DNA of 64,000 nucleotides from a virus. This document shows positions 1,199 to 43,983 of the stretch, one piece after another; the first letter of the stretch is position 1; the number at the start of each line of letters is the position of its first letter. The stretch lies in the IMG/VR virus record IMGVR_UViG_3300032334_001950, positions 8,254 to 72,253 of that record. One strand, written 5' to 3'. The notes below the pieces were generated by a model. It saw only the letters and a list, made by a program, of their open reading frames with translations. It did no database searches and was not told where the DNA came from. A program made the position numbers and the translations under genes.

Positions 1199-1505
1199 CT
1201 TTAAGTGTGGCACCAGCAAAATACTCTTGGACAACCTCTGCAAGCATAAGTTTCAGCTCATTTTTGTTAACAAACCCGCATGGATCAAACCCGTCAGATT
1301 TTGTAATGCCGTTATCAGCTTCGTAGTGCTGGTTGGCAATATAAAGCAAATCTCCAGTGACATCGTAAACTTGCTTGCCATTGATGTCTTGAAAAGCAAA
1401 ACAGTGGTTTTCTGCGATTCGCATCAGCGAAGCGTAGGCCAGGGCAACTGTCGTAAAGGATACTTTGTACCCTTCTGGATCCTTGAGGAAATACTGATCG
1501 GCCAT
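1191..1505 (-). CDS. hypothetical protein
   Basis: 104-aa ORF coupled to the next gene; TAAACT -10-like hexamer upstream. Confidence 0.6.
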   Translation of the reverse strand: MADQYFLKDPEGYKVSFTTVALAYASLMRIAENHCFAFQDINGKQVYDVTGDLLYIANQHYEADNGITKSDGFDPCGFVNKNELKLMLAEVVQEYFAGATLKDE

Positions 1506-1593
1506 GGGAGGGCAGGCAGGACGTTGGTAGTTTACCGTGGCGTGAAGCAGAGAGCAACGCCTAATTTGAAAAAAATTAGGAGTTGGTTAGGAG

Positions 1594-1621
1594 TTGACTT
1601 CCGAGGTAAATACGCTATGAT
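1594..1621 (+). promoter_or_regulatory. sigma70-type promoter driving the structured RNA
   Basis: TTGACT (1594-1599) N16 TATGAT (1616-1621); no credible plus-strand ORF downstream. Confidence 0.65.
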
Positions 1622-1627
1622 ATTACC

Positions 1628-1858
1628 GATGCACGTAGCGCGTTGGGCCCATAGCCCAAAAGGCGGCGTGTCAACACCGAGGTAGCTCCTCATATGTAAG
1701 GTCGCTCCTTACAGTGTACCTCCGGCTAAACGGAGGGGTGCGTTCATTAACCTTATAAATGAACCCAGCGGGAAAGGGACCCGCGCCTCAACGCTAAGCC
1801 AAATGGTTAGGCAATCCGACAAGGGGTCCTGTACCTGGTTCGATTCCAGGAGCGTTGA
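1628..1858 (+). ncRNA. putative structured non-coding RNA of unknown class
   Basis: Stems 1631-36/1666-71, 1643-47/1655-59, 1679-84/1717-22, 1695-1701/1707-13, 1742-48/1758-64, 1768-72/1780-84, then a tRNA-like domain and a T-rich run. Confidence 0.55.
1789..1858 (+). tRNA. tRNA-like element with degenerate anticodon arm (no assignable anticodon, no encoded CCA)
   Basis: Acceptor CAACGCT/AGCGTTG, D-arm GCC-AAATGGTTA-GGC, T-arm CCTGG-TTCGATT-CCAGG; anticodon arm is only about 4 bp with a 6-nt loop. Confidence 0.55.
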
Positions 1859-1865
1859 TTTTTGT

Positions 1866-6650: not shown

Positions 6651-7337
6651 TTACATAGGAATCCTTTCTTCATCAACAACCTTAACCGCTGCTCGTTTCA
6701 CCACATGGGAAGTTGCCGCAGCAGGCTCTTCCGTAGCTTCTTGGCGGTTCTTATTCTTACCGAAGACGCTATAAAGCCCAGACCGTACATGAAACTGGTA
6801 CGATCCACGCTCCTGTCCATCTTTTGCTGTCCAAGTGTTATAACGCAACGTAGCCTCCAATGCCATCTGGCGCCCAACATGGATCAATTGTTCCAGCCGC
6901 CGCGCATCATCGTGCCATGCCACCATCTTAAAACTGAGACTATCGTCCCAATTATGGTTCAACAATGTTTGCCCCGGTGCAGAACACATCAAACTGAACG
7001 CCAATAAATCCTCCCGTGTCTTTTCATTGATGAAGCCAACACCACCAGCAAGATGCACCACGTTAAGGACAGGCCCACCCAAAACTTGGATAGGTTGGTT
7101 CGGTACCAAGTACATCTTGTAATCTTGCCGATTGGGGTACAACCGACCACTGATCAATAGCTTCACCCCAGGCTGGAATACATCAAATGTTTCACCTGCA
7201 GCCCGATTCGGAACAACGTAAAGCGGGACCTCTGCGCTGCTTCCTTTGTGACCCGGCAAGTTAACCTGCATAAAACGCAACCCGCTTTCCGTAAAATGCT
7301 CGCCCTTGTAGGTGCCGGTTGCCAGTAGCGTGTTCAT
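6651..7337 (-). CDS. ssb: single-stranded DNA-binding protein (two OB-fold-like halves)
   Basis: LHVGRQ-like ..EATLRYNTWTAKDGQERG motif; acidic tail DEERIPM. Confidence 0.7.
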   Translation of the reverse strand: MNTLLATGTYKGEHFTESGLRFMQVNLPGHKGSSAEVPLYVVPNRAAGETFDVFQPGVKLLISGRLYPNRQDYKMYLVPNQPIQVLGGPVLNVVHLAGGVGFINEKTREDLLAFSLMCSAPGQTLLNHNWDDSLSFKMVAWHDDARRLEQLIHVGRQMALEATLRYNTWTAKDGQERGSYQFHVRSGLYSVFGKNKNRQEATEEPAAATSHVVKRAAVKVVDEERIPM

Positions 7338-7358: not shown

Positions 7359-7808
7359 TTAATGGTCGATTGTCTGGAGCTGGACGCCAGCCTCCTCAAA
7401 GAGCCTAGCAGCCAACAAGAAGTTCTCCAGCCACCGCTCCGGGATTCCTCCCCTGGCGCTGACATAAACTTCGGCGGTCCCTGCATTGATCAAAGCAGCA
7501 GCACACCTACTGCAAGGATGAAAAGTTGTATAAGCAGTAGAACCCTCCGTGGAAATACCGTGGAGTGCTGCAGTGATGATTGCGTTGGTCTCTGCATGGA
7601 TGGTTGCTTCATACTTGAATTCACGATCATTGAGACGATTCAAATCATCACTAATGTTTTGCGGGAATCCGTTATATCCAGTGCTGATTATCTTCTTGTC
7701 CTTAACAAGAACACAGCCAACCTTGGTACTAGGATCCCTACTCCACGTAGCAATTTCATTCGCTATTCGCATAAAGCGAACGTGCCACTTCTCTTCTTTG
7801 TTATTCAT
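7359..7808 (-). CDS. dCMP deaminase
   Basis: SRDPSTKVGC, TGYNGFP, HAETNA and PCSRC zinc-deaminase motifs. Confidence 0.92.
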   Translation of the reverse strand: MNNKEEKWHVRFMRIANEIATWSRDPSTKVGCVLVKDKKIISTGYNGFPQNISDDLNRLNDREFKYEATIHAETNAIITAALHGISTEGSTAYTTFHPCSRCAAALINAGTAEVYVSARGGIPERWLENFLLAARLFEEAGVQLQTIDH

Positions 7809-8074: not shown

Positions 8075-9304
8075 GTGGCGTTATTTCCCGGTACAAACTT
8101 TAATTATTTTGGTAGCCAACAAAACACAGATGATGCCGACGAGTGGAATAACGTCCCACAAGATAGTACAATATCTTTCGATCCAAGCTCACTGGACAAA
8201 TCTGCAGGGAATTTCGGTGGTCAATATAGAGATGTAGCACTTGATCCCGGTCAATTTGCTAGGGCTTTTGCGCAGAAAATTTCCCAGGGTTACGGGGCAG
8301 TTGATAGGGCGTTAGGGGGAGTTTTGCCTGGTGGTGCAGATAGCCCATATATTGGGGCATCTACTACAGCGGCTGGACGCAAGGGTGCAGTTGACGCAGC
8401 AAGTACCTGGGCTGTAGATGCTGCGTTACCGTTGGCGAATAAAGCCGCACTTGCCCTAGTCGACAGGGCCCAGAAGAACCCGGCAGCACAAATATCATTG
8501 CAAACGTTGAATGATATTCGACAAAGAGTAAGCAACACACTTGGTAAAGATGTCGTAGCATACGTCGGGCCAAAACAGTATCCCCATTTTGATCCATCAG
8601 ATGAATTTTCAAAGGGGCCTGCTATCGCCTTACGGCCCTCCACACCCACTACAGATTTGGGCATTATGCTATATGGGTCTAAACCGCAAAATCTTAGAGA
8701 ATTTGAAAATACGCTTGTCCACTCACCCATAGCTTTACATGAGTTGGGGCATGCACTTAATACAGGAGACCCATTTGCAAATAGATTAGCAGAATCTCGA
8801 AACATGGATATCAATCGATTTACAGGGTATAGTCGCACGCCAAATTACATAGCAGGTATTGGGGCGGCCACTTCAGATAAAAACGGAAACAAAAGTCTTT
8901 TGGCATCGGGCATACAGGGAGCCTTAGAATATTTAGCCGCGCCAGGCACTCGGCATACGCTTGCAGAAGAAGCTTTGGCAAGCAGAAATGCAATAAATCT
9001 TGCTGATGAATTTAATTTACCTCGTGGCATTCCGGGACTTGGGGCTGCTTTTGGTACGTATGCTACATCTAGGGCCATGCCAGGATTCACTACGGGAGTC
9101 GCGTCTGAATTAGTCACACGCGGGGCTAGAGCATTTGGCAATGCAATTGGTGATTACATTATTGACCCGATAGGTGACCGCATTAGGGGAAATGACTACA
9201 ATCCCCTTGAACAACAATTGCGCAAGTACGGATACAATGAAAAAGATTACAGGTTAGCCCAGCCAGGCGGATTTGGTGCACCTGTCCAAGTGCAGCACAA
9301 GTAG
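8075..9304 (+). CDS. putative zinc metallopeptidase-domain protein
   Basis: LHELGHA (HExxH) plus downstream EEALASRNA; GTG start 25 nt after TAGAAT. Confidence 0.6.
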   Translation: MALFPGTNFNYFGSQQNTDDADEWNNVPQDSTISFDPSSLDKSAGNFGGQYRDVALDPGQFARAFAQKISQGYGAVDRALGGVLPGGADSPYIGASTTAAGRKGAVDAASTWAVDAALPLANKAALALVDRAQKNPAAQISLQTLNDIRQRVSNTLGKDVVAYVGPKQYPHFDPSDEFSKGPAIALRPSTPTTDLGIMLYGSKPQNLREFENTLVHSPIALHELGHALNTGDPFANRLAESRNMDINRFTGYSRTPNYIAGIGAATSDKNGNKSLLASGIQGALEYLAAPGTRHTLAEEALASRNAINLADEFNLPRGIPGLGAAFGTYATSRAMPGFTTGVASELVTRGARAFGNAIGDYIIDPIGDRIRGNDYNPLEQQLRKYGYNEKDYRLAQPGGFGAPVQVQHK

Positions 9305-9835: not shown

Positions 9836-11683
9836 TTAGTGGGTCTCCTCCCAGTTCTTACCAATACGGTACTCACCAGTAAACGGGCACTTCAATCCAA
9901 AGTATTCACCGGACTGGCGAATACCATCCACAATGCTCTTTGCAATAAATTCTGAATGCTGGGGACGTGCAAGCACCTGGAGTTCATCGTGGAACCAACC
10001 AACCGGTTGAAAATCCTCACCCGGATCCAACCCCGCTTTCGTTACTGTATCCCAGAAGATACAGGTAGCCTTCTTCATCAGGATCGCCCCCGTAGATTGT
10101 AGCAATTGGTTCAGCGCTGAATGCCTGGAGCGGATCAATAACTTGCGCCCATCAATGCCAACGAGGTGACCATTCTGCGTAATGCGCCGATCGATCAGAT
10201 CTTTTAACTGCTTGATAGCAGGCAAGTTCACATAAAATGTATCAATTGTTACTTTTCCCTGCCTGTACTGCTCATCTTCAGTTGCTTCAGGGCAAATAAT
10301 ACTTCCGGCTTTCTTCACTCCAGCGCCATACAGCACGCCAAACGTCAACCTCTTGGACAGATCCCGTGCTGCTTTAGGGATTTTCCCACTGGCTGGATCA
10401 TACAATCCAAACAACGCAGCATTATGTGCATGGATATCAACGCTCGGATCACTGACCAACCCAGCGTAAACACCCTCATCAAAGTAAGCAAGCCAAGCAG
10501 CTAGCGCCCGTAATTCCAAACCGGAAGCATCGGCACCCACTAGGTCCCATCCTTCTGGGGCATAGAACAAAGCGCGACACTCAGCACCGAAGGGCGCACC
10601 AACACTGGGCACCTGAGAGACGTTTGGATTACTGTGCGAAACCCTACCGCTAACACATGAATTTGTATTGACGTTACCATGAATGCGGCCATCATTGTAG
10701 ACGCGGCAATGATTAAGCCAAGCCTCTTTGCCATCTACAATCTGACCCAGTCGTTTATTGAGCAGTTGATACTCGGCCAGCATTTTTGCTTCAGGATATT
10801 TCTCCCCTAATTTTTCCAGAACATCGTCATCAACTTTGACGTTACCTTTTTCCGTAGATCCAAAAATAATTTCGGGGTAGCGCTGCTGCAACCGTTCTGC
10901 TGTCTGCTGCCTTGATCCTGGGTTAAATACGGTGATCTTGGTTTTAAGGGGCTTTCCTGTTTTAGCGGAGATGCGTTCCTCCTTAATTGGAGGGAAAACA
11001 TCCTGGAGCTGATCGTCAATTTCAGTCCGCCTAGCTTTGAGTACATTGACGAGAGCGTATGCGGCCTTTTCATTGAACGGGAAGCCAAATTTCTCCTGTT
11101 CGGCCATGATACAACAGAACTCGTGCTCCAGATCGAAGGCCCTGGCGCTGATCTCCTGGGTCAACATGTAATTGTACAGCTCCAAGCTGACCAGGGTATC
11201 CCCCTCACAGTAGGTCTGCATGGCTGCTGACCAGTTATCCCATACCTTTTCACCGGGTTCTAGGGGTGCTTCAGCTTTGAATTTGATCTTTGATGTACCA
11301 AGCCGTTCTCCCCAGGCGGCTAAGCTATGGCGCCCTTTGTACTTAGACTCAATATGGGAATACTTAGACTCATCCTCAGATTCAATCTCGGGGAACAGCA
11401 ACCGGCTAACTACCAAGGTGTCGTAGATGTCGCAATCCGGTCTCAGTATGAGATTGGGATACAGTTTACGTAGTACGGGTAGGTCAAACTTCAGCAAGTT
11501 ATGGCCGACCAGTTGCCTTGCCTCTGCAATGTAGTCAAGGCCTGCTTCGATGCTGGGATGCCCCGGTTGGTTCGCACACGAGATCACCTCGCCCGTTTCC
11601 ACGTGGCGCAGAACCAAGCAATGGACGCGATCCAGCTTGTGGAGCAATCCATTGGTCTCCAGATCTAGCACGTAAGCGGTCAT
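9836..11683 (-). CDS. polA: family A (T7-like) DNA polymerase with 3'-5' exonuclease domain
   Basis: Exo motifs DLETNG, GHNLLKFD, YCEGD; polymerase motifs DASGLELR, KRLTFGVLYG, HDE. Confidence 0.96.
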   Translation of the reverse strand: MTAYVLDLETNGLLHKLDRVHCLVLRHVETGEVISCANQPGHPSIEAGLDYIAEARQLVGHNLLKFDLPVLRKLYPNLILRPDCDIYDTLVVSRLLFPEIESEDESKYSHIESKYKGRHSLAAWGERLGTSKIKFKAEAPLEPGEKVWDNWSAAMQTYCEGDTLVSLELYNYMLTQEISARAFDLEHEFCCIMAEQEKFGFPFNEKAAYALVNVLKARRTEIDDQLQDVFPPIKEERISAKTGKPLKTKITVFNPGSRQQTAERLQQRYPEIIFGSTEKGNVKVDDDVLEKLGEKYPEAKMLAEYQLLNKRLGQIVDGKEAWLNHCRVYNDGRIHGNVNTNSCVSGRVSHSNPNVSQVPSVGAPFGAECRALFYAPEGWDLVGADASGLELRALAAWLAYFDEGVYAGLVSDPSVDIHAHNAALFGLYDPASGKIPKAARDLSKRLTFGVLYGAGVKKAGSIICPEATEDEQYRQGKVTIDTFYVNLPAIKQLKDLIDRRITQNGHLVGIDGRKLLIRSRHSALNQLLQSTGAILMKKATCIFWDTVTKAGLDPGEDFQPVGWFHDELQVLARPQHSEFIAKSIVDGIRQSGEYFGLKCPFTGEYRIGKNWEETH

Positions 11684-41715: not shown

Positions 41716-43983
41716 ATGTTTATTGATAATGACTTTCCTAAGCTGTTAGGTGCGGAGCTTTATCGCCCCCACCCGGCTTACATCGTCGAAATGGCCGCAG
41801 AACCGGTTGAATAACAGCCGCCTTTTTGAGTAATCAAAAAGTGATAACCCGGTGAATTGCTGGAAACCCTTCTAAAAGAATTGAACCCTACAACGTAATC
41901 AGTAATGATAAGCGTGATAGGTTGAAAAGTTTCAATTGTCGGGCAATCAGCAGCCAAGCTTCCTAGGAATAGGTGGAAGGTTCAACGACTAGGGTACACG
42001 ATCCAGAACGGATTATGAAACCCATTAGCGCCGGGGCTCCCAAAATTGAATGTAATTTTTAAATTTACGTTCAATGGCAAAATCAGAATTCTGGTAAATA
42101 GCTTGTATTGCCTTGGCATCTTTTTTGTATCCGGGCAAATGAAACAAGTTGCTACCATTTTTGGTAAATTCTGATTTGATCGGCAACTCTACGCTTGATA
42201 TTAATTTGATCCATGTTTGGAGTTGTACAGCAAATTTGATTGACGCGGTGGTGATTTTAAAGCGGCGATCTGTTACAGAACCGTCGCCATCCCAAGCCCC
42301 ACGCAAAAAATGAGGCACTAAGTTTTCTTGCAGTGTTGTCGTGATCTCTAAAGTTTTAGATTTATTGGGTAAAATACCCAATTTCATCAAATCTTTAACC
42401 AAGGCAACTCTACTTAAAACCAATGACTTTTGTGGTAATGATTTTTTACCACGTATTGTTGAAATCTTGGTTTGCAATTTTGGGGCATTTGAGCCCAGCT
42501 CGTTGCGAAATCTTTCAAGAATTAAACAATCCTCTTCTTTTAATGCGATGCGAGCAGCCGTCAATCTAGGATTAATATTTCCATCGGTTGCCAATAGACC
42601 AAGAAAATAAGCCTTTCCTTCTGTATCAATTTTTTCAAAATAACGCTCGTTGTAATTGAAAAAAGAGTAAGTTTCGCCGGCTTTATTTTTTCTAAGCCCC
42701 GTCTGCTCAAAAAAAGATAGAAGGTTGAATTTTTTTCTGGCATTGTAAAAAGCAACCATTGATATATTTAGTTCTTTTGCTGCATCAGCATCAGACATCG
42801 TAGCAGAAAGTTCTGCTACCACTTCAAATGAAAGATTTAAGCGATTGTGCCGAGCCATGGGGAGCGTGATATAGTCTGTGCCCCACCGATGACAAAGGTG
42901 GGGAACAATGGATTGGGAAGCTCAATCCTAGCACGTGTTGTTCATGACTTCACCAAACAGCCTGGCCAAACCGTTCAGCTGGACCGGTACCGTTTCTGGG
43001 GTAACCCCGGTACCAAGGCCAACCGTGAGCGTACCCAGGACCAGACCATTGGTACCGCTAACAGCCGTTCCATTGTGAAGGACAAAGTTCTGGTGTCTCT
43101 CCGCGAGTACACTGGTCCTGCCGACCCGAACAATGCCAACGCTCCCAGCACCTTTAAGATTGCTCGGGAAACGCTGATGACCGCTCAGCGCTTGCTGCTG
43201 GACACCGGGAACCTTAACATGTTCCACCAGTCCATTGGTTCGCTGACCCTGCTGGATGACTACCGCCGCTGGCGTGATCGCGTGCTGCTGGACGAACTGT
43301 ATAAGTCCTTCTCACGCGGCCAAGCCTCCGATACCCAAGGTGGTTACTACTACCCCAACAACCACACCAACTCCAGTGGTACCGTTAGCACCTACACTGC
43401 TACCGAATATGCTTCTGAGCGTTACAAGTTTAACGTGAAGAGCGACCTTCTGGAAGTTGTCAAAGGTCTGCGTAAGCGTAACGTTCCCGTCTTCCAAGAT
43501 GGTTACTACCGCTGTATTGCTGATCCCTCCTTCATGAAGGATCTGCGTGCGGACCAAGGCTTCCGTGAAGTTGCGCGTTACCCTGGCATGGGCCAAGGCA
43601 ACCCCATGATGGGCGCCATGGGTCCCAACCAAGCCATCTACGGTGGTGGTCAATACGGCCAAGCTGCTTTTGTGGCTGGTGAACCGATCATGCCTACCGG
43701 CTTTGTGTTTGAAGGTGTTCGTTTCTTCGAATCGACCAACTTCACCAACCTGACCGTCACCTGCGACATCAACGATGGCGCTGGTTCCACGACCCACACC
43801 ACGCCTCCCGGCCTGTTCTTCGGTCCCCAGGCTGTTGGTATCGGTATCGGCGGCCCCAATGCTCAAGTCCTCATTAACAACAACGACGACTTCAGCCGCT
43901 TTATCATCCTGATTTGGCAGCTGTACGCCGGTTTTGCTAACCTGAACAAGGACTTCTGCACCGTCGCATTCACCATCGTTTGA
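41716..43983 (+). CDS. major capsid protein, split: join(41716..41807,42936..43983), 379 aa
   Basis: Exon 1 MFIDNDFPKLLGAELYRPHPAYIVEMAAEP joins in frame to give EPVVVHDFTKQPGQ; strongly biased codon usage; G..FEGVRFFES and FFGPQAVG motifs; position after portal/scaffold. Confidence 0.88.
41808..42935 (+). mobile_element. self-splicing group I intron (1128 nt)
   Basis: P1 with U.G at the 5' splice site; P AATTGCTGGAAA 41855, Q AATCAGCAGC 41945, R GTTCAACGACTA 41980, S TGATATAGTC 42867; P3, P7, P8, P9; terminal G 42935; 8-bp P10. Confidence 0.93.
42025..42858 (-). CDS. intron-encoded double-motif LAGLIDADG homing endonuclease (antisense orientation)
   Basis: AYFLGLLATDG and HFLRGAWDGDG motifs; AT-rich; lies in the P8 loop. 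Confidence 0.9.
   Translation of the reverse strand: MARHNRLNLSFEVVAELSATMSDADAAKELNISMVAFYNARKKFNLLSFFEQTGLRKNKAGETYSFFNYNERYFEKIDTEGKAYFLGLLATDGNINPRLTAARIALKEEDCLILERFRNELGSNAPKLQTKISTIRGKKSLPQKSLVLSRVALVKDLMKLGILPNKSKTLEITTTLQENLVPHFLRGAWDGDGSVTDRRFKITTASIKFAVQLQTWIKLISSVELPIKSEFTKNGSNLFHLPGYKKDAKAIQAIYQNSDFAIERKFKNYIQFWEPRR

Follow-up and report, generated by a model that had tools for sequence, protein, structure and literature searches.

What the plus strand encodes between two minus-strand open reading frames (ORFs; 1191-1505 and 1866-2393) was the question raised by positions 1594 to 1862 of the window, by which we mean the whole 64,000-nucleotide (nt) stretch analysed here, positions 8,254 to 72,253 of IMG/VR virus record IMGVR_UViG_3300032334_001950. 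The initial annotation had read this interval as a promoter-driven, structured RNA containing two complementary pieces of transfer RNA (tRNA) mimicry. Comparison with homologs showed that the locus encodes a conserved, structured, promoter-associated non-coding RNA of roughly 230 nt, built as a string of independently folding modules, and covariation among 38 copies of its last module supported the view that the 3' end imitates a tRNA without being one. The TTGACT-N16-TATGAT promoter was found where it had been placed, matching the consensus at 10 of 12 positions, and a sigma-70-like promoter stands at the equivalent position before every homologous RNA that we read (L002, L003, L004 and the longer relatives described below), with an extended -10 in some homologs and with the -35 inside the loop of an upstream terminator in others. 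A transcript would thus be expected to start near 1628-1629. Only two ORFs overlap the interval, 1227-1685 (+) and 1532-1693 (-), and neither is conserved, homologs showing a 41-column gap and replaced segments there, which agrees with the earlier judgement that no credible ORF is present. The heavy base pairing seen at the outset also held, since the minimum free energy (MFE) of 1625-1862 was -91.7 kcal/mol (z = -3.3), a stability equalled by 1 of 200 shuffled sequences.

The 3' module is a single-copy element in the window. It has the acceptor, D and T arms that had been attributed to it and no canonical anticodon arm: the acceptor stem is of 7 base pairs (bp), the D arm carries GG, and the T arm reads CCTGG/TTCGATT/CCAGG. 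CCA is not encoded, the discriminator being followed by TTT or TTA in the window and in L002-L004. An exact scan with the 25-mer spanning the T arm and acceptor strand returned three viral loci, and a looser pattern (CCGACAAGG, 7-14 nt, GGTTCGATTCC) returned 60, most of which share a 7-bp acceptor, U8, a D arm with GG, the motif N-CC-GACAA-GG-N', a linker of 6-9 nt, a canonical T arm and the closing acceptor strand. From 48 candidates we removed five as ordinary tRNAs or non-folding sequences (L015, L020, L048, L076, L079) and dropped five near-duplicates by hand (L014, L040, L041, L063, L122); L002 equals the window copy, and 38 distinct rows remained. When these rows were fitted to a cloverleaf whose anticodon arm was reduced to a 3-bp stump, 90.6% of cells were paired and 17 of 20 pairs had changed on both sides, while none of 500 shuffles reached any of the five measures and slid controls gave 33-49% pairing. 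Acceptor, D, T and mini-stem all covary, including all seven acceptor pairs.

The stump itself is sharply delimited. Its mini-stem is paired in every row, with eight two-sided changes at the outer pair (31:41), whereas the next pair outward (30:42) is paired in only 11%. A 5-bp anticodon stem with a 7-nt loop is absent; instead, all 38 copies have a 3-bp stem with a pentaloop, GACAA in 36 and GAUAA in two. The search pattern demanded GACAA for most rows, but seven rows came instead through an unrelated scan for the 5' module, and blastn brought up copies in S-EIV1 and S-CREM1 that have GACAA as well, the latter on a covarying GCA/UGC stem. The features of a canonical tRNA that remain are the 7-bp acceptor, the D arm with G18 G19 and the 5-bp T stem with its T-loop (TTCGATT in 31 of 38), and all three helices covary. 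The 3' module therefore belongs to a wide phage family of anticodon-less tRNA look-alikes, in which the body, as its predicted fold indicates, retains acceptor/T stack and elbow without being able to decode. GACAA is also the boxB pentaloop of phage P22, described in passages of PMC12550061 as adopting a GNRA-like tetraloop fold in which the C is turned outwards, to face a protein. The two loops are identical, but that of P22 sits on a 5-bp nut-site hairpin bound by the N peptide, whereas the window loop caps a 3-bp stem inside a tRNA body and has no known N-like partner.

Cultured carriers of the element are S-PM2, S-SZBM1, S-RIM8, S-CREM1, DSL-LC03 and S-RIM32 (10 records), plus S-EIV1. No annotation marks it in S-EIV1 or in any of the 10 GenBank records retrieved with the S-PM2 copy. 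ARAGORN labelled 13 of 20 such loci 'tRNA-??? (ca)', that is, with a 6-nt loop, and many lie inside the tRNA arrays of large phages; the Rfam tRNA model scored 32 bits for the relatives' copies in L010 and L123. A scan of genome contigs gave 37 loci, of which two were identical to phage types (L069, L096) and three were look-alikes in other bacteria (L067, L082, L088), the remainder being tRNA-Sec variable arms or coding sequence; none of the 37 has a cyanobacterial title. We found no prior description of a GACAA-stump tRNA-like element in the literature searched, which did not extend to supplementary files, and the passages of PMC9964418 matched by term search made no mention of the element or of S-EIV1-type RNAs. 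The GACAA-stump look-alike thus appears to be an undescribed class of phage RNA, conserved in the model cyanophages S-PM2, S-RIM8, S-CREM1 and S-EIV1. It also bears on annotation, as the same element receives an unassigned tRNA label in some phages and an amino acid in others: the S-CREM1 copy (L134, OP535465; 469-540, equal to record positions 9968-10039), unannotated between tRNA-Met and tRNA-Leu, is called tRNA-His (atg) by ARAGORN and the L006 homolog tRNA-Leu (aag), so that misannotation is a risk.

Upstream of the tRNA-like element, the window RNA carries a 5' hairpin and the small hairpins M1 to M5 (Table 1). M1 and M2 are absent from L002 and L133; they resemble each other and look like a local tandem duplication. 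Taken together, and with M5 counted as 1769-1783, M3 to M5 were 97.1% paired, with six pairs changed on both sides and slid controls at 27-51%. None of 500 shuffles was as good on four of five measures, the fifth, 'further pair types', not exceeding the shuffles. The two-sided change in M3 is a single pair, C-G to U-A in L121. M5 ends 4 nt before the tRNA-like element, and it may form a compact pseudoknot with CCC at 1764-1766.

Table 1. Promoter and RNA modules of the locus (window positions)
Feature	Position	Strand	Description
Sigma-70-type promoter	1594-1621	+	TTGACT 1594-1599, 16-nt spacer, TATGAT 1616-1621
5'-terminal hairpin P1	1631-1671	+	MFE fold; apical part 1638-1665 is the recurrent cyanophage module GCGCGTT-stem-NNAUA-stem-RAAGGCG
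M1	1679-1691	+	small hairpin, GAGG-UAGCU-CCUC; optional
M2	1697-1711	+	small hairpin, AAGG-UCGCU-CCUU; optional
M3	1719-1736	+	CCUCCG / GCUAAA / CGGAGG, then GGU; 91.7% of cells paired
M4	1742-1764	+	7-bp stem, 9-nt loop; 100% paired; 3 of 7 pairs changed on both sides
M5	1768-1784	+	CGGG / AAAGGGA / CCCG; 100% paired; 2 of 4 pairs changed on both sides
tRNA-like element	1789-1858	+	acceptor 1789-1795 with 1851-1857; discriminator A1858; D arm 1798-1812
Mini-hairpin of tRNA-like element	1815-1825	+	UCC / GACAA / GGG, replacing the anticodon arm
Linker of tRNA-like element	1826-1833	+	
T arm of tRNA-like element	1834-1850	+	

The modules recur in other combinations. Longer family RNAs (L008-L010, L019, L021, L024, L025, L032, L040, L042, L052, L113, L116, L117, L122, L123, L125, L127 and S-EIV1) share the start, promoter plus 5' hairpin, and the tRNA-like end, with a changing set of hairpins between them, and the tRNA-like element also stands alone in tRNA arrays. 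In L119 the leader ends in a tRNA-Pro that replaces the tRNA-like element. L121 (2345-2592, -) keeps a window-type leader, consisting of the 5' module and M3 to M5, while its tRNA-like element has shrunk to a T-arm remnant with a T run resembling an intrinsic terminator. One hairpin of the longer RNAs is a known motif. The abiF RNA (RF03085; AbiFr/RCd22) reached or exceeded its gathering score in eight loci (L010, L123, L127, L116, L021, L032, L042, L006; 46-55 bits against 37), and in those loci it is the module just before the tRNA-like element. The gap from abiF to the next tRNA or tRNA-like element was 4 nt in five of five loci for which we had both coordinates (L010, L021, L116, L123 and S-CREM1). 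In the T4-like S-CREM1 the motif lies between tRNA-Asn and tRNA-Gly, an instance already in print as an Rfam match (PMC9964418, Table 4). On our reading, other longer RNAs may carry the abiF frame with a hairpin inserted in the loop and scores below threshold. L021 unites the M3-M5 core, abiF and the tRNA-like element in one longer RNA. We considered whether M3 is a truncated abiF motif; it had no score with the Rfam model, and L021 has the core alongside a true abiF, so M3 does not descend from abiF by decay.

Passages of three papers describe abiF RNA as the antitoxin of the AbiF HEPN RNase in type III toxin-antitoxin and abortive-infection systems (PMC12373285, PMC12737573, PMC13064643). 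The toxin family Abi_2 (PF07751) was found neither in the window record nor in any of five relatives' records, four of which are rated 100% complete. In the phages examined, abiF antitoxin RNA is therefore an orphan, whereas the bacterial motif sits upstream of abiF.

Several further observations were made on the longer RNAs and on the arrays. In L009, L024, L040 and S-EIV1, a short lysine-rich ORF (...KKKEAAAKKK) lies upstream of the RNA unit, as does a terminator, in the loop of which the -35 of the RNA promoter is found. A second tRNA-shaped element of unusual form (CACCUGG...GGUUCGAAUCCUA..CCAGGUG) follows the GACAA-type element in L009, L024 and L122 and replaces it in L113, where ARAGORN made no call. 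The tRNA arrays of T4-like cyanophages also contain a further unannotated conserved segment between tRNAs (...AACAAGGAACGUUG...AAACGAAG...CAUCGUAGA...; L134 541-632, L128 at about 7405-7535, L012 upstream of 504); it had no Rfam match in the one such locus scanned, and L010, L117 and others are without it. Two ideas about the longer RNAs were discarded: pairing between linker and leader (UAUCAAU with GUUGGAUA), which L024, L025 and L019 do not fit, and a coding tag in the leader (GCAAGC...), in which, as we read it, the variable 'codon' sits in a covarying stem.

We lean towards reading the locus as a series of small structured RNA modules that is driven by a promoter and closes with a tRNA-like element, in which the modules would serve as protein-binding decoys in phage-host conflict. 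Host RNA polymerase would transcribe the unit early from its own sigma-70-type promoter. The 3' element keeps what tRNA-processing enzymes are expected to read, namely the 7+5-bp acceptor/T stack, the D/T elbow and the discriminator, so RNase P would cut at 1788/1789 and the 3' end would be trimmed as for CCA-less tRNAs. The two predicted products, leader and tRNA-like RNA, would be about 160 and 70 nt long, and their release would parallel that of small RNAs lying between tRNAs in the arrays of cyanophages. Once free, the modules most likely bind proteins in phage-host conflict, a role that we propose because the same slot, 4 nt before the tRNA-like element, holds abiF antitoxin RNA in toxin-less relatives. 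For relatives bearing abiF the obvious partner would be a host AbiF toxin, engaged by antitoxin mimicry. As for the 3' module, its GACAA-capped tRNA body could plausibly be a pseudo-substrate that tRNA-directed nucleases are unable to cleave, and action as a decoy against anticodon nucleases, as first suggested, is possible.

Known systems offer partial parallels. In MALAT1/mascRNA, and in tRNA punctuation generally, an RNase P cut at a 3' tRNA-shaped element sets the end of the upstream RNA and releases a small tRNA-like RNA. The phage RNA resembles MALAT1 in bearing a tRNA-shaped 3' end on a longer non-coding RNA, but MALAT1 is eukaryotic and unrelated in sequence, and processing of the phage RNA is a prediction. 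By this analogy the RNA would work through tRNA-punctuated, mascRNA-type processing, which suggests a route by which several small RNAs come from one transcript. The pseudo-ToxI RNA of phage PhiTE reportedly uses tandem 36-nt repeats. According to PMC3475682, it is a phage RNA that mimics a type III antitoxin and neutralises an abortive-infection RNase. The same mechanism is what we propose, by analogy, for the abiF-bearing relatives, and the window RNA may possibly share it, although pseudo-ToxI acts on a different toxin family and has no tRNA-like element. The orphan abiF beside a tRNA-like element in toxin-less phages would, if so, suggest RNA-level counter-defence against AbiF-type HEPN RNases. 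These RNases are the proposed ancestors of Cas13. A passage of PMC13366656 on some Synechococcus genomes lists AbiE and no AbiD/F, and a further look for an Abi_2 gene turned up no more than a fragment.

Several points weigh against this reading. The abiF motif, which longer family members carry in canonical form directly before the tRNA-like end, is missing from the window RNA: at E<=10, Rfam gave nothing for abiF in 1450-2000 or in the whole 72-kilobase (kb) record, and the RNA falls below the 37-bit threshold. The anti-defence interpretation therefore reaches the window RNA only through family resemblance. The promoter match taken by itself is at chance level, three such sites occurring in 1000-2600 against 3.0 expected from shuffles. 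The window copy of the tRNA-like element is the most deviant, with A at position 8 and a 3-bp D stem, and it is called by neither ARAGORN nor Rfam. Some of the constancy seen in the two module alignments stems from the search patterns themselves. The window-type alignment consists of six related RNAs (window, L002, L003, L004, L133 and L121), so the statistics for M3 to M5 rest on few sequences; extra scans for window-type RNAs added no viral locus and one metagenome locus. Finally, the 20 sequencing runs listed include no RNA run, and transcript ends, processing and CCA addition are predictions. Contigs from four DNA sequencing runs yielded variants of the locus only, one metagenome contig variant skipping 1628-1712.

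A broader and distinctly tentative proposal, which we hold to be less likely than not, would be that cyanophages carry RNA anti-defence cassettes, that is, strings of decoy RNAs cut apart by host tRNA-processing enzymes at flanking tRNAs or at an anticodon-less tRNA-like element. In such cassettes abiF, a known antitoxin RNA, would be one module, and the GCGCGUU...AAGGCG hairpin, M3 to M5 and the GACAA-capped RNA would engage host defence proteins that bind RNA, HEPN anticodon nucleases for instance, as decoys or pseudo-substrates. Modules pass between phage lineages that are unrelated, which is what one would expect of an arms race.

The most serious alternative is that function resides in the leader, which might, for instance, influence host or phage gene expression as a regulator or sponge, and that the tRNA-like element is a handle that forms and stabilises its 3' end, with no part in defence. 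The replacement of the element by a true tRNA in L119 or by a terminator in L121, with the leader kept, fits this explanation, as does a 5' hairpin that begins within about 3 nt of the predicted start, like stabilising 5' stem-loops. Nevertheless we consider it improbable, because a mere handle needs no invariant GACAA stump, and the stump is kept across T4-like and S-EIV1-like phages and where the element stands alone in tRNA arrays. No complementarity to a target turned up, although none was specifically sought.

We examined next to this the proposal from which the work started, a composite decoy in which the 5' hairpin supplies an initiator-like CAU anticodon arm to the 3' tRNA body. In the window the idea has its attractions, as the hairpin sequence is UUGGG-CCCAUAG-CCCAA, which contains CAU and three G-C pairs, and the 3' body lacks an anticodon arm. 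A hairpin with CCATA in its loop is indeed present (1643-1659), and its surroundings define a pattern, GCGCGTY-N3-C-NN-ATAG-N4-R-AAGGCG, which occurs once in the window and in 36 viral loci; the letters fixed by this pattern carry no information on conservation. Among 32 distinct copies the inner stem was 99.5% paired, with four of six pairs changed on both sides. The loop-closing C-G pair is present in 31 of the 32, so the loop is a pentaloop, NNAUA, rather than one of 7 nt like that of an anticodon arm. Where the anticodon would lie, 15 copies have CAU, 14 GAU, two AAU and one UAU; the would-be position 33 is U in two, and 14 copies have A-U at alignment columns 18:30, the outermost of the three G-C pairs claimed. 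Neither the anticodon-like loop nor a conserved CAT survived this comparison, and with them fell the likeness to an initiator anticodon arm.

The distribution of the two modules also spoke against a single mimic made of complementary pieces, since each occurs without the other. The 5' module opens the window-like RNAs and minimal RNAs consisting of promoter, 5' hairpin and tRNA-like element (L106, L108, L114, L120, L124, L131); elsewhere it lies between tRNAs in arrays (L112, L128), directly before tRNA-Met (L118), or alone upstream of ORFs (L110, L126, L129, L132). It is tandem-duplicated at the start of the L119 RNA (11418-11500), which ends in a normal tRNA-Pro and tRNA-Thr. Its apical part is deleted in the otherwise homologous L009, L024 and L052, and S-EIV1 lacks the module altogether. 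The 5' module is thus a separate, mobile and widespread cyanophage hairpin. The helix suggested between GGGACCC (1776-82) and GGGTCCT (1824-30) exists as complementarity in the sequence, without comparative support: it was 85.7% paired, but 174 of 500 shuffles were as good, the same helix slid by -1 was still 81% paired, and three of its bases belong to the covarying M5, with which it competes. These comparative data largely refute the composite decoy, to which we now give very little credence.

About as little can be said for a tRNA-like element that works as an adaptor or acceptor, aminoacylated for tmRNA-like translation rescue or for non-ribosomal aminoacyl transfer, which we regard as very unlikely. 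An intact acceptor/T-arm stack with a discriminator and a total length matching that of a tRNA would suit such a role, but no aminoacylation identity element is conserved. Pair 3:70 is AU in 14 of the 38 rows, GC in 11, UA in nine, CG in three and GU in one; the discriminator is A in 22, U in 14 and C in two; the acceptor sequence varies freely, and there is no anticodon. Transfer-messenger RNA (tmRNA), one-piece or permuted, was considered in view of the cyanobacterial host and the pseudoknot-like leader and was ruled out by topology, by the lack of a tag frame and by ARAGORN and Rfam: ARAGORN reported no tRNA and no tmRNA in the whole 64-kb window, a permissive Rfam scan (E<=10) of 1450-2000 gave noise and no real match, and the leader holds no conserved reading frame. 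The tRNA-like domain of tmRNA likewise has an acceptor stem and T arm without an anticodon, but the phage element has G3:U70 in one of 38 copies and has no encoded CCA, no tag frame and, where the anticodon would be, no insertion of helix 2 or a pseudoknot, and its acceptor strands enclose about 56 nt.

YrlA RNAs, too, imitate tRNAs. Passages of PMC4201824 state that their D and T arms mimic tRNA, that some are phage-encoded and that RNase P cuts the Mycobacterium smegmatis YrlA, which also acquires CCA; the order given there is T arm, closed acceptor-like stem and D arm, ending in a Ro60-binding stem, within 4 kb of a Ro60 gene. We rejected identity with YrlA, as the window order is acceptor, D, stump, T, acceptor and the RNA ends at the acceptor stem. 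TROVE had no Pfam match among the 10 ORFs scanned between 421 and 9835, smaller ORFs lying outside the scan, and the GNCGAA motif that YrlA RNAs have close to their 5' end was not seen by eye in 1625-1700. GOLLD and ROOL are described in passages of PMC5737381 as ornate phage or prophage non-coding RNAs that often lie beside tRNAs and may be co-transcribed with them; they resemble the window RNA as tRNA-associated phage RNAs, but are much larger, with fixed architectures, and had no Rfam match here. The window RNA is therefore not a member of the tRNA, tmRNA, YrlA or abiF families.

The genomic setting invited one more explanation, in which promoter and transcript would act in DNA replication, supplying an origin primer or an R-loop, and not as a free RNA. 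The record to which the window belongs measures 72 kb and is rated 84% complete. Its DNA had no blastn match among cultured phages and a 577-amino-acid (aa) ORF had no match; a 762-aa virion protein had a single match among 50,697 phage records, in Synechococcus phage S-EIV1 (52.6% identity over 99% of the protein), and the DNA polymerase shares 40-44% identity with its counterparts in S-EIV1 and in four metagenomic phages with related RNAs. Since the virion protein matches only S-EIV1 while the polymerase is just 40-44% identical, we treat the phage as a distant member of the S-EIV1 lineage, presumably with a cyanobacterial host. The locus lies in the replication-gene region (SSB 6651-7337, DNA polymerase 9836-11683) as a plus-strand unit among minus-strand genes, which would suit an origin, but there is no turn of GC skew nearby (GC skew being uninformative here), and covariation at the RNA level together with the spread of modules into the tRNA arrays of unrelated phages favours a function of the RNA. 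A replication role is accordingly hard to credit.

The RNA is much better conserved than the proteins, a 25-nt T-arm/acceptor stretch being identical in L003 while the DNA polymerase is 40% identical, and modules pass freely between phages that share only about 40% identity in their proteins. The least probable explanation, a decayed tRNA gene with chance hairpins and no function, could point to the window copy's escape from ARAGORN and the Rfam tRNA model, but it is contradicted by sequence conservation far above that of neighbouring proteins and by compensatory changes in every stem, with the same non-tRNA stump in every lineage. Because the homologs all share the truncated anticodon arm and show such changes, they are not ordinary intact tRNAs of which the window holds a randomly decaying copy.

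Two minor features of the window remain. A second promoter-like site (TTGATT-16-TATAAT, 1871-1898, +), matching at 10 of 12 positions, directly follows the RNA within the minus-strand ORF 1866-2393 and may be there by chance. The one gathering-level Rfam match in the window lies away from the RNA locus and is a group I intron at 41799-42101 (+), which scored 53.6 bits against a threshold of 50 and lies just upstream of a major-head-protein-like ORF (42847-43983).

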